From: a virus
Virus record (IMG/VR): IMGVR_UViG_3300029852_000012
Span: 1-50,487 of that record
Strand: one strand, 5' to 3'
DNA: 50,487 nucleotides
The notes beneath the pieces were generated by a model, which was not told the DNA's origin, made no database searches, and saw only the letters and a list, made by a program, of their open reading frames with translations. Made by a program: the position numbers and the translations under genes. Positions 17,083-45,449 of this stretch are shown piece by piece. Position 1 is the stretch's first letter, and each line of letters starts with the position of its first letter.

Positions 17083-17664
17083 ATGAAACAAGTTCAATAT
17101 ACAGATTATGATAGTGTAGCAAACGCGAACAATCTAATGAAGTCAGGAAAGAAGTGCATAGGTGGTGTTTCTTGGAAATATTCAACTCAAAACTTTTATC
17201 TTGACAGAATTCGTCGAGTTAGGAAGTCAAAAGAGCGGCTTGACAATATGGAAAGAATGTCTGATGGTTTTACGACGTTTAAGATAAATGAACGAGGTAA
17301 AATCAGGAATATACGCTCTGTGCACATAAATGAGAGAATGGTTCAGAAAGCTCATTCGGAATTGACATTAGTTCCAAGGCTTCGACCAAAATTGGTGTAT
17401 GATAATTATGCATCTCTTGAAGGACGAGGAATACAAATGGCCTTTGATAGATTGAAGGTGCATTTGTGGAGATATTACCGAAAGCATGGAAACAATGAAG
17501 GCTATATTTTAGTTGCAGATTTACACGCGTATTTTGATAGCATTGACCATGATTGTGTGTATGAGCAATTGAGTAAAGTTTTCAAAGATGATTTGAAGTC
17601 GTTGTATTTGACGATGGATTTTGTTGATGCATTTGGTGATAAGTCTTTGGGATTAGGAAGTTAA
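17083..17664 (+). CDS. DGR reverse transcriptase, N-terminal fragment (ends at an in-frame TAA)
   Basis: Contains FKINERGKIRNIRSV, NERMVQKA and ADLHAYFDSIDH (RT motifs 1-3). It terminates inside ...SLGLGS* of the LGxxxSQ motif. Confidence 0.85.
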   Translation: MKQVQYTDYDSVANANNLMKSGKKCIGGVSWKYSTQNFYLDRIRRVRKSKERLDNMERMSDGFTTFKINERGKIRNIRSVHINERMVQKAHSELTLVPRLRPKLVYDNYASLEGRGIQMAFDRLKVHLWRYYRKHGNNEGYILVADLHAYFDSIDHDCVYEQLSKVFKDDLKSLYLTMDFVDAFGDKSLGLGS

Positions 17665-17682: not shown

Positions 17683-18261
17683 ATGTTTTATCCGAATAAG
17701 ATTGACCATTATATAAAAGAAGTTCTCAAGATTGAGGGTTTTGGAAGATACAATGATGACTTTATTCTTATACATGAAGACAAAGCATATTTGCAATATT
17801 GTCTTGATAAGATAATCGAAATGTATGGAGAGTTAGGAATAGAGTTAAATCAAAACAAAACTAAGATTTGTAAGCTTAGTACAGGTTTTAAGTTTCTAAA
17901 AACAAAAGTTCATTTGACCGAAACGGGTCGTGTTGTAATAAGGCCTGATAGAAAGTCAATAGTTCGGGAACGAAGAAAACTGAAAAAGCTTAAGACAAAA
18001 CTTGATGCTGGTGAAATCGAGTTTGAAGAAGTAAGGCAGCAGTATATGTCATGGAGGGGCTATATTGCAAAGTTTGATTCGTATAAAACTCTTAAAGATA
18101 TGGATAAGTTATTTGATGAGTTATTCATATTTAATTGGCATCAAAGCGAACAAGAACAAATTAAGAAGAAAAGGAGGAATTCTTACAATGTTAAATATGG
18201 AGACAAGCAAAGTCCAGCTTGCAGACGGCACGGTCTTGAACTTGAGGCTGAATGGGACTGA
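17683..18261 (+). CDS. DGR reverse transcriptase, C-terminal fragment (same frame as 17083..17664)
   Basis: Same frame as the upstream fragment. The sequence after the stop reads VSQILAMFYPNKIDHYI...GRYNDDFILIH (YxDD box), followed by a thumb-like basic region. Confidence 0.85.
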   Translation: MFYPNKIDHYIKEVLKIEGFGRYNDDFILIHEDKAYLQYCLDKIIEMYGELGIELNQNKTKICKLSTGFKFLKTKVHLTETGRVVIRPDRKSIVRERRKLKKLKTKLDAGEIEFEEVRQQYMSWRGYIAKFDSYKTLKDMDKLFDELFIFNWHQSEQEQIKKKRRNSYNVKYGDKQSPACRRHGLELEAEWD

Positions 18262-19384: not shown

Positions 19385-19437
19385 TATGCGCATTTCTACA
19401 CAGCAAAACTTTTTTCAAAAACTTTTCAAAAAAGGTA

Positions 19438-19466
19438 TGTACAAATTCAAAATAACATGGTATAAT
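19438..19466 (+). promoter_or_regulatory. Promoter P2: TGTACA-N17-TATAAT
   Basis: TGTACA 19438-43 and tgGTATAAT with TATAAT at 19461-66. Upstream is ttttcaaaaacttttcaaaaaa. Confidence 0.7.
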
Positions 19467-19522
19467 ATAATCAGGTTAAAGATAAGGCCTACAAAATAAT
19501 GAGTGTTCAGGAGGAACGAAAA

Positions 19523-19903
19523 ATGTACAAATTCTTAAATCTACATCCAAAAGGAAAAATAGTTGGTGATTGTGTAAAACGAGCAATTGCAGGTGCAGAA
19601 AATCGTGATTACATGGAAGTTCAAAGGGAACTTAATCGTTTGAAGAAGGAAACACATTGTGATTGTTTCAATAACAGAAAGAACATTACAGCGTATATGC
19701 AGAAGCATGGTTACATAAAGCTTAGCTTTCCTGCAGTTAAAGGTGAACCTCGAATGAACGGTGAAAGATTCTGCCAAGCATATTCAAAAGGACGATATAT
19801 CTTAAATATGGCCGGGCATCTTACATGTTGTGTTGATGGTGTTATTTATGACACATGGGACTGCTCACAGAAATGTGTGTATAACGCATGGAAAGTTCGA
19901 TAA
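19523..19903 (+). CDS. Hypothetical early protein with a possible Cys/His/Asp papain-like pattern
   Basis: ATG 19523 after AGGAGG, 126 aa. Contains GDCVKRAI...GHLTCCVDGVIYDTWD. Confidence 0.6.
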   Translation: MYKFLNLHPKGKIVGDCVKRAIAGAENRDYMEVQRELNRLKKETHCDCFNNRKNITAYMQKHGYIKLSFPAVKGEPRMNGERFCQAYSKGRYILNMAGHLTCCVDGVIYDTWDCSQKCVYNAWKVR

Positions 19904-19911
19904 ATTAGGGG

Positions 19912-19940
19912 TGTACAAGTTGCACCCTATATGGTATAAT
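19912..19940 (+). promoter_or_regulatory. Promoter P3: TGTACA-N17-TATAAT
   Basis: TGTACA 19912-17 and tgGTATAAT with TATAAT at 19935-40. Starts 9 nt after the upstream stop codon. Confidence 0.65.
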
Positions 19941-19979
19941 AAAATCATAAACAAAACAAATGCTTAGGAGGGCAAAACA

Positions 19980-20356: not shown

Positions 20357-20869
20357 ATGTCAAAAGAAAATTTACAGAACAAAACTTGCAAAGAGCTCAG
20401 AGAGCTTGCAAAGGACATGAACATCTCTGGTAGATGGGACATGACCAAGGACCAGTTGATTGATGCAATCTTAGGAGCGGAAGTGTTAGAGAAAAACGAT
20501 GAATCTGAAAGTGCTAAAGACGAATGTAAGATTGACAATCACGATGTCGTAGAGGTGGAAGATAAAGTTGAGAAAGAATCCGCCAACGTCAATGTTGATA
20601 TGGCTCAGAAGATGCCGTATATTGAAAACGTCGAAATCGGTACTTTGGTTGCTTTCCGTCTTTCCAATGGTAAGGTAAAATCTGCTAAGGTCACTCGTAA
20701 GTCTACCAAGAATCGTAAGCTTAAGCTTGAGACTGATTATGGTGCTGAGTACATTATATCTTTTGATGATATTGTATGGGTACGTACAGGTAAGCGTTGG
20801 CCTCGTGGAGTTTATAAGCTTTTGAAAGGATTGGTGGATGAGAATGGCAAAGAGGAACAGAAAAGCTAA
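20357..20869 (+). CDS. HeH/Rho-N-like domain protein, hypothetical
   Basis: 170 aa. The N-terminus KTCKELRELAKDMNISGRWDMTKDQLIDAIL is paralogous to the N-terminus of 44967..45449. Confidence 0.7.
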   Translation: MSKENLQNKTCKELRELAKDMNISGRWDMTKDQLIDAILGAEVLEKNDESESAKDECKIDNHDVVEVEDKVEKESANVNVDMAQKMPYIENVEIGTLVAFRLSNGKVKSAKVTRKSTKNRKLKLETDYGAEYIISFDDIVWVRTGKRWPRGVYKLLKGLVDENGKEEQKS

Positions 20870-21401: not shown

Positions 21402-22356
21402 AGCATTAGCAAAGGTTTTATGGTATTATAATCTGATACCTGATGTTGCATCATTAAGTCAGAAAATCGTTTGTCCTTTTCATGACGATGTAAACCCAAG
21501 CATGATTGTGAATTTTGAAGATGGTTCATGGTTTTGCTTTGGATGTGGATTGACTGGTGATGCAAAGAAGTTTGTAAAGCTTATGGAGTCCAATTACAAT
21601 GGGCTGAATGACTTGCAGGCTTATCAAAAATATCTTCGTATTCTGAAATCCGATAAGTGTAGCGGTATAAAACTGGATAGGTCTCTGATTAAACAGAAGT
21701 CACTCCAGAGGGATTTATATAATGAAGCCTATGATTACTACCACGGATTAAGAAAAGTTAACTGGAGGGATTCTGATGAACCTGAGGTGGTGGCTGCTAG
21801 AGAATACATGACCAAGAGAGGATTCAAGCCAGGTACCCTACATAAATGCAAAGCCAAGGTTACATATAATAAGAGTTATGGAATCATATTCCCAATGCTT
21901 GACAATGGAAAGTTCAAAGGTTGGGTATGTCGTACGATGATTAAGTCGGTTGAAGAACGACGCAAATATCTATACAATGAAGGATTCAGTCGAGCAACAA
22001 CTCTTGTGGGCGATTATGGAACTAAAGACTATGTGTTTGTGGTTGAGGGTTACATGGACCGATTGAAGTTTGTGCAATTTGGTGAAGACAATGTGGTTGC
22101 TATTTTAGGTTGGAAAATGTCACCTCAGCAAATTCAAAAGCTGAAAGACAAAGGAATCACGAAAGTGATAAGTGCATTGGACAATGATGAGTGTGGTCGC
22201 AAAGGTACTAAATTTCTTGAGCAACATTTCGAGGTAACGAGATTCAAATATCTCAAAGGAATAAAGGACCCAGGTGATATGACTCAAGAGTTGTTCGATA
22301 AAATGTTTAAGAAAACTATGGAAATCTATGAATCAAAAACAAGGAGGAAACCATAA
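21376..22356 (+). CDS. dnaG: DNA primase (DnaG-type: CHC2 zinc finger plus TOPRIM)
   Basis: Contains CPFHDDVNPSMIVNFEDGSWFCFGCG, then VVEGYMD and ALDNDECG. In-frame ATG 21382 has better SD spacing. Confidence 0.9.
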   Translation: MTMENKSGEALAKVLWYYNLIPDVASLSQKIVCPFHDDVNPSMIVNFEDGSWFCFGCGLTGDAKKFVKLMESNYNGLNDLQAYQKYLRILKSDKCSGIKLDRSLIKQKSLQRDLYNEAYDYYHGLRKVNWRDSDEPEVVAAREYMTKRGFKPGTLHKCKAKVTYNKSYGIIFPMLDNGKFKGWVCRTMIKSVEERRKYLYNEGFSRATTLVGDYGTKDYVFVVEGYMDRLKFVQFGEDNVVAILGWKMSPQQIQKLKDKGITKVISALDNDECGRKGTKFLEQHFEVTRFKYLKGIKDPGDMTQELFDKMFKKTMEIYESKTRRKP

Positions 22357-23198
22357 TGGGTTTAGTCGATAAAATTAAGCAGGATGTAAAAAGGTCCGGT
22401 CAGAACAAAGGTAAGTTCATCTACTTCAGAGAAGGTCAGAAAATCAGAGTTCGTTTCTTGACTGATATGGACGACGGAATGGAAGTTACATTCCATGATA
22501 GTTTTGAAGCCGGAATCAATGTTCCTTGTCAGGAGCTTTTCGGAAAGGATTGTCCTTATTGTGATGATGACAGTCTTCGTACTCGTTCTCAGTATATCTG
22601 GTCTGTATGGAATTATGAGACCAAGGAAGTTCAGCTGTTCATGTTCCCTGTGAATAACTGCAGCCCGATTCCTGCACTGATGGCAATGTATGAGAACTAT
22701 GGCACAATCACTGACCGTGACTATGTGATTAGTGTTTCCGGCAAGCAGCAGAATAAGACGTTCTCTGTTGTTCCTATGGACAAGGTTAAGTTCAGAAATG
22801 AAAAGGCGAAAGCTTACTCTGAAAAGTCTATCCTTAAGATGCTTGATAAGGCATTCCCTTGTGATGCAACTGAGGATGACGATGAAGAAGAGGATGAGGC
22901 ACCTAAGAAACGTGCTCCGAAGTCTACTGGCAAGAAGAACACTCGTAAGCCTGAGCCGGAAGATGATGACGATGAGGATGATTACGACAACGAGGATTGG
23001 TGCGAAGAGGAGGAAGACGATGTAGTCGATTACTCTGAAATGTCTGCCAAAGAGTTGTACAACCTCTGTAAGGAACGTGACATTAAGGTAGCTCCAAAGA
23101 AACCTGCTAAGTATTACATCAATCAGCTTGAGGAATGGGATGCTGCTCAGGAAGACTGGGGTGAAGAGGAGGAAGACGATGAATGGGAAGACGACTAA
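22356..23198 (+). CDS. Putative ssDNA-binding protein (gp32-like Zn/OB pattern) with HeH motif and acidic tail
   Basis: 280 aa. Contains ...KIRVRFL...H...CQELFGKDCPYCDD..., the C-terminal motif SAKELYNLCKERDIKVAPKKPAKYY, and DDEEEDE / EEEDDEWEDD tails. Confidence 0.5.
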   Translation: MGLVDKIKQDVKRSGQNKGKFIYFREGQKIRVRFLTDMDDGMEVTFHDSFEAGINVPCQELFGKDCPYCDDDSLRTRSQYIWSVWNYETKEVQLFMFPVNNCSPIPALMAMYENYGTITDRDYVISVSGKQQNKTFSVVPMDKVKFRNEKAKAYSEKSILKMLDKAFPCDATEDDDEEEDEAPKKRAPKSTGKKNTRKPEPEDDDDEDDYDNEDWCEEEEDDVVDYSEMSAKELYNLCKERDIKVAPKKPAKYYINQLEEWDAAQEDWGEEEEDDEWEDD

Positions 23199-23562
23199 TG
23201 CAATAACTTTGCAGCAGTTGTTCAACACTCAACTCATAACTCAAGATAAGCTCATTCATAAAGGTGTCTATGATAGATACAAGGATGAGCATACAGTTAC
23301 TGTTCCTGTGGATGATGTTGGTTTAGCATCATATCATGTTCAGCAGCTTATGTCCGAGATTGGTGAGGTGTTGGACGCTGATAAAAGGTGGAAATCACAT
23401 CGCAATGATAAGTATGATAAGAATGCAAAGCTTGAGGAATTGGCCGATTGTTTTGTGGTACTTATGAACATTGCAATGTTTTCCGGATTTGATGGTGACG
23501 ACTTGGCCAATGCAATTCAGCAAAAGCTTGGTGTTGTGTCTGACCGTCTTGAAACTTTATAA
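23179..23562 (+). CDS. MazG-like / all-alpha nucleoside triphosphate pyrophosphohydrolase (dUTPase-like)
   Basis: ATG 23179 after GAGGAGGAAG. Contains LMSEIGEVLDA...KLEELADCFVVLMNIA (an ExxE...EExxD-type motif). Confidence 0.6.
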   Translation: MNGKTTNAITLQQLFNTQLITQDKLIHKGVYDRYKDEHTVTVPVDDVGLASYHVQQLMSEIGEVLDADKRWKSHRNDKYDKNAKLEELADCFVVLMNIAMFSGFDGDDLANAIQQKLGVVSDRLETL

Positions 23563-23581
23563 GGGAAGTATTCACATAGTT

Positions 23582-23612
23582 GGGAGGGGCTAAACTCCCT
23601 CCCTACATTTTT
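23582..23612 (+). terminator. Rho-independent terminator
   Basis: GGGAGGGG-ctaaac-TCCCTCCC stem at 23582-23603, followed by tacaTTTTT. Confidence 0.6.
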
Positions 23613-23630
23613 AGAAAAGGAGAAATCGCC

Positions 23631-24113
23631 ATGAACGATATTAAAAATATGAAGGTGTACTTTGCAAGCCCTTGGTTCAATCCTGACCAGGCAGAACGTG
23701 AGGAGCGTGTAAAGGGACGTTTGAGAGAACTTGGATTCAATGTATGGAGTCCTAAGGAGAACAGTTCGTTGTCACCTATTACTGACCCGGTAATTCGTGA
23801 GAAAATCTTCTCAGCAAATGTTGAGCATATCAAGTCTTGTGACATTATCTTCGCAATCACTGATGGCAAGGACATGGGCACCATTTGGGAAGCTGGTTTT
23901 GCTAACGGCTATAATGCGGGTATGGAGGACCCTGAAACTTTCAAGCCCATCATCATTGTGTATTATTGTGAGACACTTGGTCCGAATGGTCAGTTCAATC
24001 TGATGCTTGCTCAGTCCGGTAACATCACAATCACAAAGTTTGAGGACCTTGATAAGTTGCCTAAGTTGATTGAAAAGAATGAGGGACTTGCTTATGCTGG
24101 AATTGTTGAGTAA
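23631..24113 (+). CDS. Nucleoside 2-deoxyribosyltransferase-family protein
   Basis: ATG 23631 after AAGGAG. Contains VYFASPWFNPDQ...IFAITDGKDMGTIWEAGFA, the family pattern. The TTG 23580 extension overlaps the terminator. Confidence 0.75.
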   Translation: MNDIKNMKVYFASPWFNPDQAEREERVKGRLRELGFNVWSPKENSSLSPITDPVIREKIFSANVEHIKSCDIIFAITDGKDMGTIWEAGFANGYNAGMEDPETFKPIIIVYYCETLGPNGQFNLMLAQSGNITITKFEDLDKLPKLIEKNEGLAYAGIVE

Positions 24114-24621
24114 AGAATCCATAATGAGTGAGTACCCGCTCAAGAAGATTATCAGGTACAATCATCGTAGTAGACTTCAAGATGAGAGTGTTGCAGAGCA
24201 TACTTGCTTCGTTTCCTTGTTCTGTCTTAAGATTATGGCTCAGCTCAATCTTACTCATGAGCAGGAACGACAGGTTCTGATTCTTGCAGCATTGCATGAT
24301 ACATGCGAAAGTCGTACATCTGACATTCCTCATGATGTCAAAGCAAACTATCCTGAGATGCAGCAAATACTCGACAGAATCGAGCAGGACTACTACAAAG
24401 AACATTGGAAAAATTATCTCGGAGAGGTGTACAAACCTGAGTCGATAGTGTATAATATTCTTAAGTTGGCAGATGCCTACAGTGTATATCAGTGGTGTTT
24501 GAATGAAAAGGCTCTTGGTAATTCTTCCGATTGTATTGGAGAGATTTACTTCGAATCTAAAGAACGCCTTGAGAAATACACGAATGAAATCAACAAACTA
24601 ATTGAGAAGGAGGCCAAATAA
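24094..24621 (+). CDS. HD-domain phosphohydrolase (YfbR-like 5'-deoxynucleotidase)
   Basis: Contains SVAEHTCFV...ALHDTCESRTSDIPHDVK (H...HD...D). ATG 24124 is an alternative start. Confidence 0.7.
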   Translation: MLELLSKESIMSEYPLKKIIRYNHRSRLQDESVAEHTCFVSLFCLKIMAQLNLTHEQERQVLILAALHDTCESRTSDIPHDVKANYPEMQQILDRIEQDYYKEHWKNYLGEVYKPESIVYNILKLADAYSVYQWCLNEKALGNSSDCIGEIYFESKERLEKYTNEINKLIEKEAK

Positions 24622-25533
24622 ATGAATGGTGTTCAGAATGGCTACAAAGGAATTGGTGTAGAGATTATCGGCTACACAAAGCATCCTGCAAAAGTAATGT
24701 GGGATATGCTTAAGCAGACTTGGATTCAGCTTCAGGATATTGAGTACAATCCGGAGCTCCCTATTGTAAAGGAGTTCATTACCGGTTCGGTTGATAAGAG
24801 ACTGAATCCCACTCCTCAGGAAACTGTACTTATTCAGTGTGTGTTTAAGAACATATCGAGAGTAAATCTTGCGCAGCTTACTCGTCATCGTGGTTGGTTA
24901 TTCCAGGTTGAATCTCAGATGCCTCAGCATGTTGAGCACAATGTCATTCTTCCTTTGAATATCGTTCAGTCTGAGTTTTATGAAAGAGCTGCTAAGCTCA
25001 TTGAGGAATCTCAGAAGCTGTATGATGATATGACTAAAGGAAACGACAACGGTAAGGACCATACGGTTATCCCTTATCAGGATGCACGTTATCTGCTGAT
25101 GCATGGTCAGACATGTGATGCTTCTTGTTCTTTCACTCTTCCTCAGCTTGTGAATGTGTGTGGTCAGAGGCTGGAAAACAATACAGCTGATGAAATCAAC
25201 TACGCATTCAGACTTCTGCTTAAGGAGCTCAAAAAGGCAATTGCTCTTGATGATGAAATGGACGAGCTTGATAAGTTAGTCTATACCAAGAGTCTTGAGA
25301 GATGTGATTGTTTTGGTGCAGCAGCTAAGAAGTGCTTTACATGTGATGATGTGTTTGGCAACTCTTTCAAGAGATTCTGTGATGGCAATGAGCATGTAAC
25401 TCATGCAACTGAAAACTGTAAGTTTGATTACAGTAAATCTGCTTGGTATGCAGAGCTTAAGCGAATCTACAAAGAGGAACCGGAACTTCTGCTTCCTGGT
25501 GAGGCTGCAATGATTGAGAGCTGGGAGGACTAA
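24622..25533 (+). CDS. ThyX-fold (flavin-dependent thymidylate synthase-like) protein, divergent
   Basis: 303 aa. FKNISRVNLAQLTRHRGWLFQVESQMPQ aligns to the ThyX RHRxxS...SQRY block, but the Ser and RY positions are changed. Confidence 0.65.
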   Translation: MNGVQNGYKGIGVEIIGYTKHPAKVMWDMLKQTWIQLQDIEYNPELPIVKEFITGSVDKRLNPTPQETVLIQCVFKNISRVNLAQLTRHRGWLFQVESQMPQHVEHNVILPLNIVQSEFYERAAKLIEESQKLYDDMTKGNDNGKDHTVIPYQDARYLLMHGQTCDASCSFTLPQLVNVCGQRLENNTADEINYAFRLLLKELKKAIALDDEMDELDKLVYTKSLERCDCFGAAAKKCFTCDDVFGNSFKRFCDGNEHVTHATENCKFDYSKSAWYAELKRIYKEEPELLLPGEAAMIESWED

Positions 25534-25536
25534 TGT

Positions 25537-25974
25537 ATGTGGGTGATTTTCGAAGGGCTTGATAAGGCCGGTAAAACAACTTTGGAATGGGAGTTTCTGA
25601 AAGTAACAAATTTCAAGCATGTTGTGATTGACAGAGGCCCTGTTGGTTACATGACCTTTGATAAGATTCTTGGTCGTGAAACAAAGCTTGGCAATCAGGA
25701 GTTTATCCACCAGGCACGAAAGATTATGAAGTCTGATGACTTTATGGTTGTGTATTGCACAGTGGAAAAAGAAACTGCTGAGGAACGTCTTACACTTCAC
25801 AGTGAGACTTGTCCTTATGATTATGCTAAAGCTCAGAAACTTTATCGCAACAATGTTCGTAGGTACTACAAGCCTGAGAAAACACTTGAGCTTGATACTA
25901 CAAACAAAAGCATTGATGAGTGTGTTGAGCTGATTGTTGAAAAGCTTAAGGAGGTACAGCAAGGTGAATTGTAA
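25537..25974 (+). CDS. dNMP (thymidylate-type) kinase
   Basis: 145 aa. P-loop MWVIFEGLDKAGKTT. Size and placement next to the TS homologue fit the call. Confidence 0.7.
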   Translation: MWVIFEGLDKAGKTTLEWEFLKVTNFKHVVIDRGPVGYMTFDKILGRETKLGNQEFIHQARKIMKSDDFMVVYCTVEKETAEERLTLHSETCPYDYAKAQKLYRNNVRRYYKPEKTLELDTTNKSIDECVELIVEKLKEVQQGEL

Positions 25975-26743
25975 GAATGCAAATAGAGAAATGGGATTCG
26001 ACAAATTCTCTGAATGCAATTACAACTTACACTGGAGCTTCTCAAACTTTAATAGGATTCTTATGGTGGCTGGGCAAATCGCCCAGCTGCCTATAGATTC
26101 TAGGGTATTGGAGCTTGGTGCTGGTTCAAGTGATTTAGAGAATGTGGTCAAGAAAAATTTTAAGCGTGACGATATTAAGTTCACAAGAGTTGATGGTGAT
26201 AAGCGATACGAATCTGATAAGACGATTACCGTTTTCGATATTACATCAAAAGAGTTCAATACGAGAATGCATGCAAAGCTTGCTTATGACTGTGTGGTAT
26301 TCATGGAAGTGATTGAGCACCTTGATAAAGACTTTGCAGCTACTATGTTTGAACGAATTGCAAGTTGGTTGGTGCCAGAAGGAATGTTGTTGTTCACGAC
26401 TCCTACTCCTCCATACGAAGGAATGTATGAAGATAGAGTGTGGCCAACTGACCATAAAGAAGAGTTTACAAATTCTGAGATTTATGGTATAATAAACAAG
26501 GAGTTCAAAATCAATAAAGAGATTGGTTGGAGCCTTGAAGAACGAGAATATAATAAGCTTTTAGAGACTGATGCTAATTTGAGTATGATTGCTTCAAAGC
26601 TCAGAGGTGCATTTCCTGAAAGTTATGTAAGAGCAACAATTGCTTGTTTGTCTCCTGCTCAAGCCAATCGTCAGATATTGATGATATGTAAGAAAAGGAG
26701 AATTGCAAATGGGAAAAGAACGAAAGGGCAGGTGATTAAATAA
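25964..26743 (+). CDS. Class I SAM-dependent methyltransferase
   Basis: GTG 25964 lies 9 nt after AAGGAGG (ATG 25991 is the alternative). Contains VLELGAGSSDL (motif I) and DCVVFMEVIEHL. Confidence 0.7.
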   Translation: MNCKNANREMGFDKFSECNYNLHWSFSNFNRILMVAGQIAQLPIDSRVLELGAGSSDLENVVKKNFKRDDIKFTRVDGDKRYESDKTITVFDITSKEFNTRMHAKLAYDCVVFMEVIEHLDKDFAATMFERIASWLVPEGMLLFTTPTPPYEGMYEDRVWPTDHKEEFTNSEIYGIINKEFKINKEIGWSLEEREYNKLLETDANLSMIASKLRGAFPESYVRATIACLSPAQANRQILMICKKRRIANGKRTKGQVIK

Positions 26744-29442
26744 TGTCATGCGACTTGCACCGCCACGATGAGTGTTCAACATTCGATGGTTTTGGAAAGC
26801 CTGAGGAATTGGCAGCTCTTGCTAAAAAACTTGGTCATACAGCTTTAGGTGTTTCAAATCATGGTAATACAAATAGTTTGGTAAGACATTTCTATGCATG
26901 TAAAGAGGAAGGCATTAAGCCTATCATGGGATGCGAAGGATATTTCTTGCCGAAGTATAAACCTCAGACACGAGGTTACCACTTATGTTTGTTTGCTAAG
27001 ACAAAGCAAGGGTACACAAATCTGAATACACTTCAGTATGAAGGTGAGAAAATCAAGTACTACAATCCTATCTGGACGTTTGAGCTGCTTGAGGAATATC
27101 ATGAAGGATTGATTTGTACGAGCGCTTGTGTTGCAGGCTACTTGGCACAGTGTATTAAGTCAGGTAAGCTTGACCAAGCTGAAAAGTATCTTAGAAAGAT
27201 GGTCGATATTTTTGGTGATGACTTCTATATTGAGATTCAGCCATACTCAATCACTGAACCTGGACTTCAGGAAAAGGTGAATGTTGAGTCAATCAAGCTG
27301 GCAAAGAAGTTAGGTATCAAGCTTATACTTACTTCTGATTCTCATAGAGGTGCCAAAGAGGATTTTGATACATACATGAAAATGCATGAGGTTGCCAAAC
27401 ATAATTTCGAAGACATTGAGGCAACCTATAAAGAACGTTACATGCCAACTGAAAAGGAAATCATGCAGCGATTCTACAAAATGCACAGAGGTGACTTTGG
27501 TGATGCCAAAGCAAAAGCCCTGGCAAAGGAAATGGTTAGGAACCTACAGGAAATCGAGGACAAGGTTGATGGTGATATTCTTGATGAGCTTGAACTTAAG
27601 CTTCCTCAGTTTGACCCCGAAAGAGATTCATTCGATTTGCTGAAAGAAAAGATTAGAGATGGTCTTAAGAAACGAGGCAAATGGAATAAGAAGTATGCAG
27701 CACGAATTAAGGAAGAGCTTGAGGTTATCAAATATCACGGTTTTGAAGATTATTTCCTTATGGTTGCTGAATATACAACATGGGCAAAAGAGCATGGGAT
27801 TCAAGTCGGTCCAGGTCGTGGTTCTGGTTGCAACTGCTTGGTTAACTATGCATTGCACATTACAGATGTTGACCCGATTTTATTTGACCTTGATTTTAGT
27901 CGATTCTTACGAATCGATAAAAAGAAGATGCCCGATATTGACCTTGATTTTGAGACATCACGTCGAGCAGAAGTAATTCAGCATTTGCTTGATAGGTACC
28001 CAAATAATGCAGCTCAGATTTGTTCTTATGGTCTGTATCGCGTTGACAACCTCATAAATGACCTTGCAAAAGTTTGTGGTTTAGAGGGAAACAAAGAAGA
28101 GATTAAGCAAATCAAAACTTTTATCAATGGACATATCACTGAAGGTTTGCTTGACCTTGAAGCTATCGCTAATTCTGCAGAAGCTAAAATGTGGAATGCA
28201 CAATACGATAACATCATCAAGCACTTTTGTAAGTTGTATAATAAGATACGTTTTATTGGTACACATGCAGCTGGTGTTGCTATTACTGGTGGAAACATTC
28301 TGGACTATACAGCTGTTCGTATCGATTCAAAGACTGGTAAGCACTTTACAAACTATGACCTGAACGATATGGAAAAGATTAAGGTTATTAAGTTCGATAT
28401 TCTTGGTCTGACAACCATGTCAAGTATTGGTGAGCTTAGGCAGCTTACAGGTCATGATGAGTTCGATGAAGACTGGGTAAACGATGAGCAAATCATGAAA
28501 GCTTTTGGTGAAGGCAATTGTGATGGTGTATTCCAGTTTGAAAAGAAATCGGTTCAGGAAATGTTGAGAGTAATGCAATGTGATTGTTTCGAAGATGTGA
28601 TTGCAGCATCAGCTATGAACAGACCTGGACCATTAAGCTTAAAGATGCCTGAAGTATATGCAGCCAATAAAGTTGACCAAGCTCATATCGATACGAGTTT
28701 GCCATACTCAAAATATCTCGAGAAAACTTATGGTTGTGTGGTGTATCAAGAACAGGTACAAGCTATTGCAGTTAACATTGGTGGATTGGAGTGGCCTGAA
28801 GCCGATAAGATTTTGAAGATGCAACGTGGTGGTACTGAAAAGGCAATCAGAAATTTTGAAGAGAACTACGACAACTTCGTAAAGAAGTTTGAGGCCGGTG
28901 CAAAGAAACATGGCATGACCAAGGAACAGGCATTCGAAATCTTTGATAAGTTCTTCAACTATGCATTCAACAAAGGACATGCTACGGGATATAGCTTAAT
29001 CTCGGTCGAGGAAATGTACTACAAAATCTATTATCCTACAGAGTTCTGGTATGTGAAGATGAAGTACAGTGGTGATGAGGCTAAGATGGCTAAGTTCAAA
29101 GAGAATGCTGTTCGTGATAATGCGGTGCTGTTCTTGCCACATGTTAACTATTCAGCTGATTATACGCTTCGAAAGGTTGAAGGTGAAGTGATAATTCAGG
29201 AAGGATTAAGCTCAATCAAGGGAATCGGTGAAAAGGCAGCTGCAGCAATTGAAGAGGAGCGGAAGGCTCACGGTGTATTTACAAGCTTTGATGACTTTTA
29301 CGACAGATGTAAGTCAAGGATTATCACATCAAGAGTTATTCAGATTTTGAAAGAGCAAGGCGCTTTGGAGTTCAATAAACGAACTTACATCAATCGTGTG
29401 ACTAAATACAACAGCACGTTGTATGCAAAATCAAATCAATAA
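26743..29442 (+). CDS. dnaE: DNA polymerase III alpha subunit (DnaE-type, PHP domain)
   Basis: 899 aa. Contains CDLHRHDECSTFDG (PHP), GSGCNCLVNYALHITDVDP, PDIDLDF, HAAGVAI and MNRPGP. Confidence 0.9.
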   Translation: MSCDLHRHDECSTFDGFGKPEELAALAKKLGHTALGVSNHGNTNSLVRHFYACKEEGIKPIMGCEGYFLPKYKPQTRGYHLCLFAKTKQGYTNLNTLQYEGEKIKYYNPIWTFELLEEYHEGLICTSACVAGYLAQCIKSGKLDQAEKYLRKMVDIFGDDFYIEIQPYSITEPGLQEKVNVESIKLAKKLGIKLILTSDSHRGAKEDFDTYMKMHEVAKHNFEDIEATYKERYMPTEKEIMQRFYKMHRGDFGDAKAKALAKEMVRNLQEIEDKVDGDILDELELKLPQFDPERDSFDLLKEKIRDGLKKRGKWNKKYAARIKEELEVIKYHGFEDYFLMVAEYTTWAKEHGIQVGPGRGSGCNCLVNYALHITDVDPILFDLDFSRFLRIDKKKMPDIDLDFETSRRAEVIQHLLDRYPNNAAQICSYGLYRVDNLINDLAKVCGLEGNKEEIKQIKTFINGHITEGLLDLEAIANSAEAKMWNAQYDNIIKHFCKLYNKIRFIGTHAAGVAITGGNILDYTAVRIDSKTGKHFTNYDLNDMEKIKVIKFDILGLTTMSSIGELRQLTGHDEFDEDWVNDEQIMKAFGEGNCDGVFQFEKKSVQEMLRVMQCDCFEDVIAASAMNRPGPLSLKMPEVYAANKVDQAHIDTSLPYSKYLEKTYGCVVYQEQVQAIAVNIGGLEWPEADKILKMQRGGTEKAIRNFEENYDNFVKKFEAGAKKHGMTKEQAFEIFDKFFNYAFNKGHATGYSLISVEEMYYKIYYPTEFWYVKMKYSGDEAKMAKFKENAVRDNAVLFLPHVNYSADYTLRKVEGEVIIQEGLSSIKGIGEKAAAAIEEERKAHGVFTSFDDFYDRCKSRIITSRVIQILKEQGALEFNKRTYINRVTKYNSTLYAKSNQ

Positions 29443-29457
29443 AGTTAAAATTGGGGG

Positions 29458-29486
29458 TGTACAACCTTTGGTCAATATGGTATAAT
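29458..29486 (+). promoter_or_regulatory. Promoter P4: TGTACA-N17-TATAAT, bracketed by a 10-bp inverted repeat
   Basis: TGTACA 29458-63 and TATAAT 29481-86. TGTACAACCT (29458-67) is the reverse complement of AGGTTGTACA (29495-504). Confidence 0.7.
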
Positions 29487-30964: not shown

Positions 30965-31294
30965 ATGATGAATAATGATTTTGATATTAAAAAAGAATAT
31001 TCTGATGAAGTTGACAAAATGCGAAAAAATCGTGTTGAAGTAAGCTTCTATAAATATGGTCCTGCAAAAATCAACTTTGGTGAAGGTCTTGTTAAGGCAA
31101 AGAATTCTGCAGAAATGTGTATTGAGAAGTATGAGAAAACAAAGAACAGAGAATATCTACTTGATGCAATGAATTATTTGATGTTTGAGTTTATGTACCC
31201 GTCAATGGAAGGAACTTATTTTAAGGCGACTGGTAGTTCTGAGTCTGCAGGAAAGGACGGTATTTCATATAATGAACTCAAAGAGAATTGGTAA
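30965..31294 (+). CDS. Hypothetical protein (109 aa), weakly MazG/NTP-PPase-like
   Basis: Contains ...KYGPAKINFGEG...NREYLLDAMNYLMFEF..., a pattern seen in small phage pyrophosphohydrolase-like proteins. This is unverified. Confidence 0.55.
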   Translation: MMNNDFDIKKEYSDEVDKMRKNRVEVSFYKYGPAKINFGEGLVKAKNSAEMCIEKYEKTKNREYLLDAMNYLMFEFMYPSMEGTYFKATGSSESAGKDGISYNELKENW

Positions 31295-31739
31295 AGATGA
31301 ATATTATCTTGGCATAGCCCTTGCAGTTTCCAAACGAAGCACATGCCTCAAACGTCATTATGGTTGTGTTATTGTAAAGGACGACATCATCATTGCTACT
31401 GGTTACAATGGTAGTCCAAGAGGCGAAGAAAATTGTTGTGACAGAGGCACGTGTAAAAGAGCAAATGCTGAGAGATATTCAAACTATGAAAGTTGCGATA
31501 GTGTTCATGCTGAACAAAATGCATTGATTGCTACAAGTCGTGAACGATTGATTGGTGCAACAGTTTATCTGGCTTGTGAAGAGTATGGACTGAACGAAGA
31601 AAAATCTGCAATGTGGGAAGAGGAAATCATTGACTTCCATGAGGATAAGAATCCCATTCCTTGTGGCATCTGCTCACGAATGCTCAAGAATGCAGGCATC
31701 GTACGAGTGGTGAACAGGAGGGGCGATGTATGTTTGTAG
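31272..31739 (+). CDS. dCMP deaminase
   Basis: Contains STCLKRHYGCVIV, VHAEQNAL and PCGICSRML (zinc-binding HAE...PCxxC). Confidence 0.9.
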   Translation: MNSKRIGKDEYYLGIALAVSKRSTCLKRHYGCVIVKDDIIIATGYNGSPRGEENCCDRGTCKRANAERYSNYESCDSVHAEQNALIATSRERLIGATVYLACEEYGLNEEKSAMWEEEIIDFHEDKNPIPCGICSRMLKNAGIVRVVNRRGDVCL

Positions 31740-31752
31740 ATAAAAGAATGGC

Positions 31753-32565
31753 TTGAAAGAGGTGATTAAGATTTTTACAATAGATGTACCATATTTCAAC
31801 CTCGACCAGATTTATGCCAGTGGTCAATGCCCAAGATGGATTAAATTAAAGGAATCTAAGTATGTGATTCCGTTCAGAGATAAGGCGCTCAAGATTGAAC
31901 AGCAACGTGACAAGTACGATTGGACACGATATCGTTTGATTATGAGTTGTACAGAGGACGACTTCTACAATGTATGGTTTAATTATCTGGATTTGAGAAT
32001 GGATTGTCTTGATGAGAACAATAAAATAAAGAGGCTTGGTGGTAAGTTTAAAGTTCCTGCTAACAGAGGCAATGGAATCCACATACTTCATCAGGACTAC
32101 TTTGAAGCATACGTACTTGCTAAGCTCATTACATACGTTGGCTATAAAAATGCAGCAGTTGCTATGAATCACATTGCTGAAGTTTGTGGTGTTAAACATA
32201 ATCAATCAATGAGGGAGGCAGGTCGTATTACTTGGTATGAATGGCCTACACCTGAAATGATTCTTGAGCATCATCATAAGCTTGGCAAAATGGGTAAGAT
32301 AAACTCATGGCTCAAGAGATTATGTGAAGCAATAGTCAATGATTATTACGCTTACACTAAATCTGATGATGAGCTTTTCAGATTATTTGGTATGCATGAT
32401 ACTACAGTATTTCCTTTGGTCGGCATTGAGGAAACTTTGATGAAGAATTTTGGTGAGGAACCTGAAGAATTTGCCGATTGGTATCTTGGCGATATTGAGA
32501 ACAAAGGACTGGTGTATATGTATATTGTACATCATATTCTAAACAGACCAAAAGAGGTGAGATGA
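31753..32565 (+). CDS. OGG/AlkA (HhH-GPD)-like DNA glycosylase homologue, divergent
   Basis: FNLDQIYASGQCPRWIKL and GIHILHQDYFEAYVLAKLI resemble the OGG N-terminal and helix motifs. No clear HhH-GPD catalytic Lys/Asp block is recognisable. The TTG start is uncertain. Confidence 0.45.
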   Translation: MKEVIKIFTIDVPYFNLDQIYASGQCPRWIKLKESKYVIPFRDKALKIEQQRDKYDWTRYRLIMSCTEDDFYNVWFNYLDLRMDCLDENNKIKRLGGKFKVPANRGNGIHILHQDYFEAYVLAKLITYVGYKNAAVAMNHIAEVCGVKHNQSMREAGRITWYEWPTPEMILEHHHKLGKMGKINSWLKRLCEAIVNDYYAYTKSDDELFRLFGMHDTTVFPLVGIEETLMKNFGEEPEEFADWYLGDIENKGLVYMYIVHHILNRPKEVR

Positions 32566-43085: not shown

Positions 43086-43748
43086 ATGAAAAAGTCACAA
43101 TATATCAAGCAAAGACGCATTCAGCAAAGAAATCTTAAGAGGGTAATGTGCAAGAACATGATATGGCATATAATTATTATTGCTATTATAATGATTATAG
43201 CATTATGTAACATGCCAAAAGTAATTGCTGAAAAGGAAGACACATTAGAGAGAGTAAGTGAATCTTATGTCAATAAGACCACAACGCCTTATGTGTCTAA
43301 TCTGGTTACATTTGAGCCTCAAGCAGAAGAGGAATCAAGTGAGGTTGATGTTGATTACTATCCTGAGTTTACATACAGCAAAGACTGGTCAGCACAAGAA
43401 AGCTATTTGCTGGCAAGAATTGCAATGGCAGAAGCTGAAGGATGTAACACTCAAACCAAAACACTAATCATTATGTGTGTACTAAATCGTGTATGGTCTG
43501 ATGAGTTTCCTGACACAATAGAGGAAGTAATATTCCAGGAAAATCAGTTTAGTCCTATTGACAATGGACGTTGGGATAGAGTTGAGCCAAACGAAGATTG
43601 CTATGAAGCTGTAAAGGTAGTTATGGAAGCCAAGTATGACTACAGTGGTGGCGCAACATACTTTGAAAGCTGTGATGACGAAGATAACTGGCATAGCAGA
43701 AATCTTGAGTTTCTATACGAATCAGAAGGAATCAGATTTTATAAGTAA
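43086..43748 (+). CDS. SleB/CwlJ-type cell-wall hydrolase with N-terminal membrane anchor
   Basis: TM segment IWHIIIIAIIMIIALC, then LLARIAMAEAEGCNTQTKTLIIMCVLNRVWSDEFPDTIEEVIFQENQFSP. Confidence 0.75.
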   Translation: MKKSQYIKQRRIQQRNLKRVMCKNMIWHIIIIAIIMIIALCNMPKVIAEKEDTLERVSESYVNKTTTPYVSNLVTFEPQAEEESSEVDVDYYPEFTYSKDWSAQESYLLARIAMAEAEGCNTQTKTLIIMCVLNRVWSDEFPDTIEEVIFQENQFSPIDNGRWDRVEPNEDCYEAVKVVMEAKYDYSGGATYFESCDDEDNWHSRNLEFLYESEGIRFYK

Positions 43749-43760
43749 GGAGTGATTTAA

Positions 43761-44306
43761 GTGGCAAACGAAAATATTCAGGTTGAAATTCTTAGGAATC
43801 CAACCAAAGCAGACTGGGCAAGGTGTAAAGAACTGGCATTAAATACCATTGGTAAGAAGTATGCTGGTAAAGAAGTGACCGATGAGTGGAAGAGGCAAAT
43901 TCTCAAAGCTCAGCATTCACCTATCAGAACATTGATGTTCACAATCAGGTTGACTATTCCGTATTTTGCATCAGTGCATCTGGTACGTCATAAGATTGGT
44001 ATTGAACATTACGTTCAGTCTCAAAGAAATGACAGGCAAACTATGTACGATAGAGAGTTGGCACCACAGAATGCAATGGTAAGTCACATCATTGATGTAA
44101 ATGTAGAGCAGCTCATGTTCATGTCACATCGTAGACTATGTGGTATGGCTGATGCAACTACAAGATACATCATGACGCAAATCTGTAAGGAGGTTGAAAA
44201 GGTCAATCCTGAATTTAAGGGCTTCCTTATTCCTATGTGTGAATATCGTCATGAATGTCCAGAGTTTAAGAGCTGTGGTTACTATAAGGAGCACAACAAT
44301 GAGTAA
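43761..44306 (+). CDS. Second ThyX-fold protein, short and divergent
   Basis: GTG start after AAGGAG, 181 aa. HSPIRTLMFTIRLTIPYFASVHLVRHKIGIEHYVQSQRND aligns to the ThyX core with RHK in place of RHR. Confidence 0.6.
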   Translation: MANENIQVEILRNPTKADWARCKELALNTIGKKYAGKEVTDEWKRQILKAQHSPIRTLMFTIRLTIPYFASVHLVRHKIGIEHYVQSQRNDRQTMYDRELAPQNAMVSHIIDVNVEQLMFMSHRRLCGMADATTRYIMTQICKEVEKVNPEFKGFLIPMCEYRHECPEFKSCGYYKEHNNE

Positions 44307-44897: not shown

Positions 44898-44966
44898 TTA
44901 ATCAAGGTTAAGGAATGAACCTAACCGAAACCAAAAATCAAATTAAGAGTTCAGGAGGACAAAGTG

Positions 44967-45449
44967 ATGAAGAAAATCAATGAAATGAGTGTTAAGGAAT
45001 TACGTGATGTTGCTAAGGAGTTAAACATTGCATGTCGTTGGGATATGACTAAGGCACAGCTGGTTGAGGCAATCGAGAAAATTGAGAATGAGAAAAAGGC
45101 TGCAAAGCAAGTTAAGAAGGAATCCAACAAGGAAAAAGCAATGCGTATTCAAAGAGCATTCGTTGAGGTTGGTGATACTCGTAAGGAAGTTTACAGATAC
45201 ATCACAATCACAGTTAAGAATGCAGAGGAATCCAAAGCTGCAGATTATATCGATGCTGTATGTGCAAAGATGCAGGAAATGGATGAAGAATTTGAAGCTG
45301 AATACACAGCATTGAGATGTCCTGATTATGATGAGGCTACAAAGTCTTACACAGATATGATTAGCTTCACAAAAGCTGCAGGTAAGATTGCAGTTCAGAG
45401 ACAGTATGTTGGTAAGCTGATGACTAAAGCTATGGCGGCATTAAAATAA
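44967..45449 (+). CDS. HeH/Rho-N-like domain protein, N-terminal paralogue of 20357..20869
   Basis: MSVKELRDVAKELNIACRWDMTKAQLVEAIEKI. ATG 44967 lies 9 nt after AGGAGG. Confidence 0.7.
   Translation: MKKINEMSVKELRDVAKELNIACRWDMTKAQLVEAIEKIENEKKAAKQVKKESNKEKAMRIQRAFVEVGDTRKEVYRYITITVKNAEESKAADYIDAVCAKMQEMDEEFEAEYTALRCPDYDEATKSYTDMISFTKAAGKIAVQRQYVGKLMTKAMAALK

Follow-up and report, generated by a model that had tools for sequence, protein, structure and literature searches.

A remodelled ThyX-fold protein in a swappable phage gene cassette: a candidate pre-replicative route to a modified pyrimidine nucleotide

To our knowledge, every characterised pre-replicative phage pathway that adds a one-carbon unit to a DNA pyrimidine uses an enzyme of the ThyA fold. 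We describe here a gene cassette at positions 23631-26743 of a 50,487-nucleotide (nt) virus record (IMG/VR IMGVR_UViG_3300029852_000012; the whole stretch is called the window below) that may follow the same logic with a protein of the ThyX fold. The closest described systems are those of SPO1 and SP8 (5-hydroxymethyluracil, hmU), T4 (5-hydroxymethylcytosine, hmC) and the hypermodifying phages ViI, M6 and PhiW-14 (PMC8989533, PMC5889632), and the locus resembles them in its logic and in its accessory enzyme classes. A pyrophosphatase for deoxynucleoside triphosphates (dNTPs; a weak match), a dCMP deaminase, a nucleotidase and a kinase for deoxynucleoside monophosphates (dNMPs; also weak) are all present in the window, and optional enzymes for decorating a hydroxymethyl group are a further shared trait. 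Unlike the SPO1-, T4- and ViI-type pathways, the locus has a putative C5-transferase of the ThyX rather than the ThyA fold and a constant deoxyribosyltransferase partner.

The absence of a ThyA-family hydroxymethylase was assessed with Pfam. None of the 30 window open reading frames (ORFs) that were scanned matches Thymidylat_synt; this set comprises two ORFs upstream of 20357 and, beyond that position, all plus-strand ORFs of at least 90 amino acids (aa) apart from several short ones, and most ORFs upstream of 20357, including several of 300-380 aa upstream of 17 kb, lie outside it. Neither a 5-hmdU DNA kinase nor an aGPT-Pplase was detected.

A partial precedent exists in SP-15, whose DNA carries 5-(4',5'-dihydroxypentyl)uracil in place of thymine and whose Thy1-family protein gp130 was hypothesised by Kropinski et al. 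in 2018 to be a hydroxymethyluridylate synthase (PMC5977210). As at the present locus, a nucleoside 2-deoxyribosyltransferase (NDT; gp127) is encoded two genes from the over-long, divergent Thy1 protein (gp130), and SP-15 has a YfbR-type HD 5'-nucleotidase (gp90) elsewhere. However, gp130 does not belong to the subfamily described below (hhalign probability 0.5%, Foldseek rank 15), and no relationship beyond the fold is detectable. The initial annotation of the window had stated that no ThyX-based DNA base-modification route is known to have been described. Our full-text literature searches returned no report of one apart from the SP-15 hypothesis, although that hypothesis means that the idea is not wholly new (PMC5977210). 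What is new here is the known pyrimidine-replacement logic combined with a different, remodelled fold and a constant deoxyribosyltransferase partner. We propose, with a probability of roughly 0.5, that the cassette encodes a pre-replicative pathway to 5-hydroxymethyl-dUMP or a similar nucleotide.

The protein at the centre of this proposal (24622-25533, plus strand; 303 aa) matches the Pfam family Thy1 (6.8e-17; 62.3 bits against a gathering score of 24.8) and falls short of the NCBIfam thyX equivalog cut-off (35.2 against 87.9 bits). Families were assigned throughout with Pfam, PHROGs and NCBIfam, and structures were examined with AlphaFold2 (AF2) and Foldseek. The AF2 model is confident, with a predicted local distance difference test (pLDDT) score of 91.4, and its best Foldseek matches are PolB and ThyX (E ~1e-9 to 1e-8; template modelling (TM) score ~0.7 on the target). 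Single-sequence searches of the PDB with each of the two ThyX-like proteins of the window gave no match, and a family profile reaches ThyX of Helicobacter pylori, Mycobacterium tuberculosis, PBCV-1 and Thermotoga maritima (1.3e-7 to 1.7e-3). The ThyX fold that had been assigned to both window proteins is thus borne out by structure prediction, at lower confidence for the smaller of the two (see below).

Relatives of this protein are abundant and yet confined. There are 687 metagenome matches, the top 120 of which are more than 82% identical and lie on contigs of about 50 kb, and a single 90%-identity cluster containing the window protein numbers 1,703 sequences. Among 1.8 billion representative proteins, however, exhaustive searching returned only 70 ThyX-like relatives at E<=1e-3, and the only full-length matches in a viral structure library were two proteins of uncultured phages. 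Databases label these proteins 'thymidylate synthase complementing protein'. Judged by these searches, they are a small, distinct, phage-only subfamily of about 300 aa. At their C-terminus its members are extended by about 90 aa with no counterpart in canonical ThyX, and this extension is confidently folded and holds invariant residues; a metal or Fe-S site in this Cys-rich extension was considered and rejected, because the cysteines are not conserved across the subfamily. One member (P0137) carries at residues ~290-423 a fused domain that is 34% identical to the glycosylase domain of human MBD4 (pairwise E 8e-19) and that was not detected by Pfam. MBD4 is a T/U/hmU mismatch glycosylase.

The roles of the ThyX active-site residues provide a basis for reading this subfamily. 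In ThyX, Tyr91 and Ser88 are strictly conserved and critical and Arg90 is conserved, the tyrosine forms a lid that keeps solvent from uracil C5 and flavin N5, and the RHR motif and the equivalent of Arg165 have been assigned to binding of flavin adenine dinucleotide (FAD) (PMC11940539, PMC6514825). The arginine of an 'SR' pair binds the dUMP phosphate in the enzymes of H. pylori and M. tuberculosis (PMC6514825). We aligned T. maritima ThyX (a query identical to PDB 1kq4) to the subfamily profile and counted residues in 44 members; this count and the linkage counts below refer to members and loci dereplicated at 80% identity. A full alignment of 28 sequences contained no conserved stretches for a pattern scan, and subgroup alignments were used instead.

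The signature RHRxxSxxxxSxRY, with its catalytic Tyr and Arg, is replaced in the window by the stretch RHRGWLFQVESQMP, with R88 encoded at 24883, as the initial annotation had noticed. That annotation had taken the Ser and Arg-Tyr substrate contacts to be lost. Ser83, Arg90 and Tyr91 are indeed replaced, but the profile alignment places a retained serine, S98, at the position of T. maritima Ser88. Across the subfamily the site of Tyr91 is never Tyr (P, V, T, L or G), that of Arg90 never Arg (M, G, D or A) and that of His53 never His (L, F, N or S), and the canonical residue is found in 0 of 44 members at the FAD-contacting sites of Arg165 and His178; His53, Arg165 and His178 are the residues through which ThyX contacts FAD and folate. 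The RHR motif is not conserved subfamily-wide, as the His79 site is His in only 4 of 44 members and the Arg80 site Arg in 26, although the window's own copy still has RHR.

Other parts of the pocket have been kept. Four arginines are invariant in all 44 members: R80 (H. pylori R66, M. tuberculosis R87), which is the 'SR' arginine and aligns with the dUMP-phosphate binder of those enzymes, R88 (T. maritima R78), R156 (R147) and R183 (R174). S98 is Ser in 41 of 44, and E191 (T. maritima E182) is invariant. The common fold, the four arginines and the Ser88 position are thus what the subfamily shares with ThyX (PF02511; T. maritima TM0449, M. tuberculosis Rv2754c) and with the UMP/dUMP methylase PolB; the Tyr91 lid, Arg90, His53 and the Arg165/His178 pair, the extension of about 90 aa, and the new invariant residues Y157, D190, N193 and R197 set it apart. 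P111 and E294 complete the list of subfamily-specific residues present in 44 of 44 members.

Taken with the ThyX literature, this census suggests that the nucleotide pocket persists in the subfamily whereas the apparatus for completing reductive methylation has gone, and the new invariant polar residues (Y157, D190, N193, R197 and E294) argue for a remodelled active enzyme rather than decay. On comparative evidence, the ThyX-fold protein is very unlikely to be a standard flavin-dependent thymidylate synthase. The idea of a neofunctionalised ThyX, raised when the window was first read, gains comparative support insofar as the protein looks remodelled within a pyrimidine-nucleotide module.

The cassette forms part of a run of seven plus-strand ORFs that extends from 23179 to 29442, co-directional and nearly gapless, as first annotated. 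The families named at that time were confirmed for the NDT, YfbR-like HD, Thy1, methyltransferase and DnaE proteins, and also for the dCMP deaminase (31272-31739) and the second Thy1 protein (43761-44306). Intergenic spacing ranges from -20 to +68 nt: a 68-nt gap lies 5' of the NDT gene, the NDT and HD genes overlap by 20 nt, the HD and ThyX-like genes abut, and a 3-nt gap precedes the kinase gene. The kinase and methyltransferase genes overlap by 11 nt if translation begins with the GTG at 25964 (there is also an ATG at 25991), and the methyltransferase and DnaE genes overlap by 1 nt. A terminator-like hairpin with a T-rich tail (23582-23603, plus strand; 8 pairs, 6 of them G-C), the best of three such sites in 13.5 kb, lies within the 68-nt gap and marks the left edge of the cassette.

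The first gene of the cassette proper encodes the NDT-family protein (23631-24113; PF05014 3.9e-17, 62.9 bits against a cut-off of 28.8; PDB 6evs 3.3e-11). Its active-site blocks D.GT..E.G, which includes the catalytic Glu, and N.LM are at least 95% conserved among 38 orthologues, and the protein may act as a transferase or as a hydrolase. It is followed by an HD-domain phosphohydrolase of the YfbR/DatZ type (24094-24621; YfbR-like 1.3e-14, PHROG 7076 6.7e-18), which in the PDB matches YfbR at 2.6e-5 and DatZ at 2.3e-3 and might act either on dNMPs, as a 5'-nucleotidase, or on dNTPs, as a triphosphohydrolase. This protein matches a PHROG family named 'dATP triphosphohydrolase', but its likeness to DatZ is weak (2.3e-3), and a Z-genome reading (PurZ/DatZ/MazZ) was rejected, as no adenylosuccinate-synthetase match occurs among the 30 Pfam-scanned proteins (the several ORFs of 300-380 aa upstream of 17 kb being outside the scan).

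Downstream of the ThyX-like gene lies a gene for a small P-loop kinase (25537-25974; 145 aa; Thymidylate_kin 2e-4, PHROG 761 6e-9). Its P-loop, FEGLDKAGKTT, is of the dTMP-kinase type (TIGR00041 3e-6, residues 1-30 only), and the protein is a candidate for phosphorylating a new dNMP. The last cassette gene encodes a class I S-adenosylmethionine-dependent methyltransferase (25964-26743; Methyltransf_23 1.7e-8) that is Hen1-like: it matches the NCBIfam bacterial Hen1 model at 1.5e-6 (27 bits against a cut-off of 340) and HENMT1 in the PDB at 3.9e-4, with the blocks EVIEHL and DHKEEFT aligned; these may correspond to the Mg-binding motifs E..EH and DH.FE of Hen1. The gene is confined to this phage lineage, where it always lies directly 3' of the kinase gene. 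Its proposed part as a tailoring step has accordingly narrowed to that of a lineage-specific add-on, and the Hen1-like resemblance makes a role in RNA 3'-end methylation equally possible; the enzyme may O-methylate a new hydroxyl, or be an unrelated RNA-end enzyme.

The two genes that border the cassette belong to the phage backbone. To the right, DnaE, the replicative polymerase (26743-29442; domains down to 4.6e-65), closes the slot. To the left lies a MazG-like all-alpha NTP pyrophosphohydrolase (23179-23562; dUTPase_2 3.5e-4, MazG 9.2e-4, PHROG 173 5.6e-7), whose Pfam scores (1e-3 to 3.5e-4) are under the cut-offs, so that the MazG call is weak, and which has no sequence match in the PDB. 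It is a candidate for the dNTP-to-dNMP step. Its inclusion in the block at first annotation holds for position, but a 46%-identical homologue occupies the same place in a related phage without this cassette (see below), which identifies it as backbone.

The neighbourhoods of distant subfamily members, taken from assemblies and IMG/VR with neighbouring ORFs within 9 kb clustered, reveal a recurrent module (locus numbers beginning with L are ours). The ThyX-like gene is most often accompanied by an NDT-like gene, which is present in 38 of the 44 loci; a small thymidylate-kinase-like gene occurs in 37, directly 3' of the ThyX-like or HD gene, and an HD gene is found in about 35. Gene order is either NDT-HD-ThyXlike-kinase or NDT-ThyXlike-HD-kinase, with 25-45% identity between loci. 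Since this type of NDT matches only 9 of 50,697 phage records, linkage in 35-38 of 44 loci exceeds what chance would give. Of the genes in the block originally described, NDT, HD, ThyX-like and kinase thus constitute a recurrent core, to which the MazG-like backbone gene and the lineage-specific methyltransferase do not belong.

This module is found on DnaE-type, PolA-type and other replication backbones in gut and environmental metagenomes, which indicates that it moves as a unit. Genes for dUTPase and dCMP deaminase are frequent neighbours, the latter lying near the module in L001, L002, L009 and others. In one clade of the module (L077 8971-9906 and about nine related loci), a single protein of about 311 aa unites the YfbR-like HD domain with dUTPase. 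Locus L010 encodes a canonical ThyX (RHR...SQRY) besides its ThyX-like protein, implying that the latter is not the thymidylate synthase there.

Searches of 50,697 phage records with the ThyX-like protein (tblastn) and with 7 kb of the window (megablast) gave no match, and cultured relatives were reached through DnaE and the NDT protein. The closest is Agathobaculum phage AB434P2 (L008), whose DnaE, RecA and MazG-like proteins are 58%, 62% and 46% identical to those of the window; DnaE of Clostridium phage CS266P3 is 52% identical. Between the MazG-like gene and DnaE, where the window has NDT-HD-ThyXlike-kinase-methyltransferase, AB434P2 has genes for a dTMP-kinase-like protein, a kinase-like protein, a cytidylyltransferase, two unknown proteins and a ThyA-family protein annotated (by pipeline only) as 'deoxyuridylate hydroxymethyltransferase'. 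This cassette of a cultured gut phage (L008 1314-5582), whose kinase-like protein has a weak choline-kinase match, has the look of a thymidine-hypermodification cluster yet to be characterised. In CS266P3 and Dulem virus 36 a cassette of this kind is missing, and one or two unannotated ORFs lie between primase and DnaE. Furthermore, a 335-aa protein encoded 3' of the ThyX-like gene in L033 is homologous to a 361-aa protein encoded 3' of the ThyA-like gene in AB434P2. The common slot and the shared accessory gene form the best single argument that ThyX-like and ThyA-like cassettes do analogous jobs. By this comparison of gene content, 23631-26743 is an accessory, horizontally swappable cassette.

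One cultured phage carries the whole core. Geobacillus phage GR1 (L088, OK896991, 23909-29720), which grows on G. stearothermophilus ATCC 10149, has orthologues of all four core genes: its NDT and HD proteins are 38% and 32% identical to those of the window, its ThyX-like protein aligns at an hhalign E of 3e-17, and its 145-aa kinase has matches among the module kinases of 29 loci (33% at best) but none to the kinase of the window. GR1 differs from the window in that its genes are interleaved with those for a thioredoxin, an alpha-glucosyltransferase-like protein, RNase H and a nitroreductase, and in having no Hen1-like methyltransferase. The glycosyltransferase gene between its core genes belongs to a PHROG named 'alpha-glucosyltransferase' (6e-53) and matches gp313 of Bacillus phage G; its tblastn match to the T-even alpha-glucosyltransferase is weak and distant, and it has no PDB sequence match to the solved T4 glucosyltransferase. 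The nitroreductase-type flavin reductase gene adjoins the ThyX-like gene, and an FMN_red gene occurs in L001.

Enzymes that could act on a hydroxyl recur at other loci as well. A TET-associated glycosyltransferase in L009 scores 1.4e-5 over the full model, just under the cut-off, and NAD-dependent sugar epimerases are encoded in L002 and L010. Six loci (L034, L086, L035, L037, L043 and L068) have genes for a LicA-like choline kinase, a LicC-like nucleotidyltransferase, a BCCT transporter and LicD directly 3' of the kinase gene. These genes, at 9424-13573 in L034 for example, make up a complete phosphocholine-transfer set, with a choline transporter, inside a phage replication region, and the target may be DNA or the cell surface. 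The glycosyltransferase and Lic neighbours, as gene associations, point to a hydroxylated product.

The window encodes a second ThyX-like protein, far from the nucleotide genes. This mini-ThyX (43761-44306, plus strand; 181 aa; Thy1 3.8e-9; RHK...SQRN) keeps the His, RH(K), the S.R and two downstream arginines, has Asn at the Tyr91 position and is missing about 50 residues of the helical insert. AF2 predicts a ThyX fold with moderate confidence (pLDDT 71.6; TM ~0.55), and homologues in cultured phages are annotated as FAD-dependent thymidylate synthase. The gene lies in the late region beside a SleB-like cell-wall hydrolase gene (43086-43748), and the same type is also encoded by a crAss-like phage and by phages of Clostridium and Thomasclavelia. 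Mini-ThyX may be the phage's real thymidylate synthase; thymine is probably still made, and any replacement may be partial; its retention means that complete exclusion of thymine is not implied.

From the fold, the residues, the linkage, the swap and the gene associations given above, we infer the substrate, the product, the use of cofactors and each enzymatic step of the following scheme. The phage dCMP deaminase would supply dUMP, to which the MazG-like pyrophosphatase, and in relatives a dUTPase, may add. The ThyX-fold enzyme would bind dUMP through the arginines for phosphate and uracil. With the tyrosine lid, Arg90 and His53 missing, the one-carbon unit at C5 would not be reduced to methyl; water would most likely capture it instead, and the product would be 5-hydroxymethyl-dUMP or a related dUMP with another C5 substituent. 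The dTMP-kinase-like enzyme would phosphorylate this nucleotide, host enzymes would convert it to the triphosphate, and phage DnaE would incorporate it, while the HD protein and the deoxyribosyltransferase would degrade the competing canonical nucleotide to nucleoside and base, with recycling of deoxyribose. Products of genes 3' of the kinase would decorate the new hydroxyl, namely a Hen1-like O-methyltransferase here and glycosyltransferases or LicA/LicC/LicD in relatives.

A broader version can be offered only tentatively. A ThyX-derived family may have turned from a reductive methylase into a hydroxymethylase or other C5-transferase in which reduced flavin serves as a mere one-carbon carrier, and it may seed undescribed DNA hypermodifications in Bacillota phages: O-methylated hydroxymethyl-uracil, made by the Hen1-like methyltransferase, in this abundant gut phage, phosphocholine-bearing bases in the relatives with LicA/LicC/LicD and choline-transporter genes and glucosylated bases in GR1.

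Several observations weigh against the proposed hydroxymethyl-dUMP pathway. None of the enzyme classes in the cassette is foreign to ordinary thymidylate metabolism, and the presence of a second ThyX-like gene suggests continued synthesis of thymidylate. The equivalents of the RHR His and Arg and of R165 and H178 are lost in the subfamily; FAD binding is thereby made doubtful, and one-carbon transfer by the known ThyX mechanism may be impossible, and sequence does not allow an alternative chemistry to be deduced. In relatives, the Lic proteins and glycosyltransferases could have polymers of the cell surface, and not DNA, as their substrates; no glycosyltransferase is encoded in the window, and the methyltransferase there resembles an RNA 2'-O-methyltransferase. 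Routine assembly of these phages from shotgun metagenomes, as seen in the cluster of 1,703 members, also argues against bulky modifications that would block library preparation.

The cassette might instead serve ordinary thymidylate supply and salvage, with the 303-aa protein a very divergent, working flavin-dependent synthase and the deaminase, kinase, NDT and HD enzymes boosting and balancing dTTP for a genome of about 60% A+T. All of its families are classical enzymes of the dTMP pathway, the database label names a thymidylate synthase, the four dUMP-binding arginines are invariant with the Ser88 equivalent in 41 of 44 members, and the window copy has RHR. We nevertheless consider this explanation unlikely, because the equivalents of Tyr91, Arg90 and His53, conserved or critical in ThyX (PMC11940539), occur in 0 of 44 members and the thyX equivalog model is reached at 35 rather than 88 bits. 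In addition, L010 has a canonical ThyX and the window a mini-ThyX, a nucleotidase would be counter-productive within a purely biosynthetic operon, and the cassette is dispensable in close relatives, with a ThyA-type cassette in its place in AB434P2. Less probable again is a T4-like cytosine scheme, in which dCMP would become 5-hydroxymethyl- or 5-methyl-dCMP, the MazG-like protein would clear dCTP, the kinase would act like T4 gp1, and the deaminase and mini-ThyX would correspond to T4 cd and td, which would sustain dTMP synthesis. The invariant Arg183 corresponds to the ThyX arginine that touches the uracil ring (PMC6514825), the dUTPase fused or adjacent to HD in relatives and the deaminase indicate that a dUMP pool is fed, and the AB434P2 counterpart is annotated as a dUMP enzyme, albeit by pipeline only. 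These features run counter to a gene set that maps one-to-one on the T4 pyrophosphatase, C5-transferase, dNMP kinase, dCMP deaminase and separate thymidylate synthase, to an invariant acidic pair (D190/E191) that could take hydrogen bonds from the amino group of cytosine, and to glycosyltransferases of the T4 alpha-glucosyltransferase-like and TET-associated kinds known from hydroxymethyl-cytosine systems.

The ThyX-like protein might have no catalytic role, acting as a nucleotide-binding or regulatory subunit, or interfering as a dominant-negative partner with the ThyX tetramer of the host so that host dTMP synthesis stops. Loss of the catalytic Tyr, Arg and His and of several FAD contacts with retention of the nucleotide-binding arginines would fit such a role, but the invariant Y157, D190, N193, R197 and E294 and the folded, conserved C-terminal extension suggest a remodelled active site, and the tight linkage to a dedicated kinase implies a new nucleotide product; we find it highly improbable. 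We give the least credence to a free-base route like that of MilA/MilB in the making of nucleoside antibiotics, in which the ThyX-like enzyme would modify a pyrimidine nucleotide and NDT would release or exchange the modified base, which then passes onto deoxyribose, or into DNA through a glycosylase-like enzyme such as the OGG-like protein described below or the MBD4-like fusion. The conserved dNMP-type kinase and the HD protein fit a route through the nucleotide pool better, the OGG-like protein has no detectable catalytic HhH-GPD half and no DNA transglycosylase homologue was found, even though NDT is the most constant partner (38 of 44) with the active-site blocks of true transferases, an OGG-N-like gene lies 3' of the deaminase gene, and P0137 has its MBD4-like C-terminal domain (34% identity to human MBD4). 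A deoxyuridine (dU) genome was also considered. Phages with dU-DNA (PBS1, PhiR1-37 and DSS3_VP1) are without thymidylate synthase or dUTPase and rely on dCTP deaminase and removal of dTMP/dTTP (PMC12697855), and this reading was rejected on account of the two Thy1 genes in the window and the dUTPase adjacent or fused in the module of relatives.

The dCMP deaminase that would supply dUMP to the proposed pathway is encoded about 2 kb beyond DnaE (31272-31739, plus strand; PF00383 6.2e-16, PHROG 174 1.9e-39), and none is present in the examined interval downstream of RecA in AB434P2. Directly 3' lies a gene for a protein resembling the N-terminal part of OGG/AlkA (31753-32565, plus strand; OGG_N 9.2e-13; PDB 4ejy 7e-10, residues 6-172 only); no catalytic HhH-GPD half can be recognised in it. 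The protein may serve as a DNA glycosylase-like factor, perhaps without a connection to the cassette. Phages with a 98%-identical ThyX-like protein have a version of it with only 43% identity, a contrast suggesting that it evolves fast or is being exchanged.

The window itself is a nearly complete genome, about 50 kb long, of an abundant but uncultured tailed gut phage, with an A+T content of about 60%, in which every long ORF is on the plus strand and family scans identify terminase, lysins, primase, DnaE and RecA. Matches in genome collections are contigs of about 50 kb, every one binned in metagenome-assembled genomes of Oscillospiraceae or Clostridia, in agreement with an Agathobaculum phage as relative. 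PADLOC defence-system models returned nothing informative.

A few other features were noted. Promoter-like elements of the form TGTACA-N17-TATAAT, often with an extended -10, occur at 19428-19473, 19902-19947, 24428-24456 and 29458-29486, one copy lying inside the HD gene about 170 nt 5' of the ThyX-like start. Upstream of the MazG-like gene, 22356-23198 encodes a protein of 280 aa that matches no family and whose C-terminal half is repetitive and very acidic, with runs of D and E. The AB434P2 record opens with a homologue of its N-terminal part, and the protein may be a DNA mimic or resemble a single-stranded DNA-binding protein. Two proteins (20357-20869 and 44964-45449) have an N-terminal Rho_N domain (2.3e-9 and 1.1e-6). 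Adjacent ORFs at 17083-17664 and 17683-18261 have weak, complementary RVT_1 matches (1.6e-3 and 6e-6) and look like a split or frameshifted reverse transcriptase; a diversity-generating retroelement was rejected, as no template/variable repeat pair was found between 12 and 20 kb of the window.

The module is common, being carried by several unrelated phage backbones in gut and environmental metagenomes, and the existence of a cultured phage, GR1, with the whole module makes the question directly testable. If the DNA of these phages is modified, this would bear on the sequencing of gut viromes and on host prediction as well as on escape from restriction and CRISPR, and the pathway may yield new nucleotide-modifying enzymes for biotechnology. 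If the proposal is true, a ThyX-fold C5-transferase would represent an independent invention of the strategy used by the classical pyrimidine-replacing phages, and a new outcome for the flavin/folate chemistry of ThyX.

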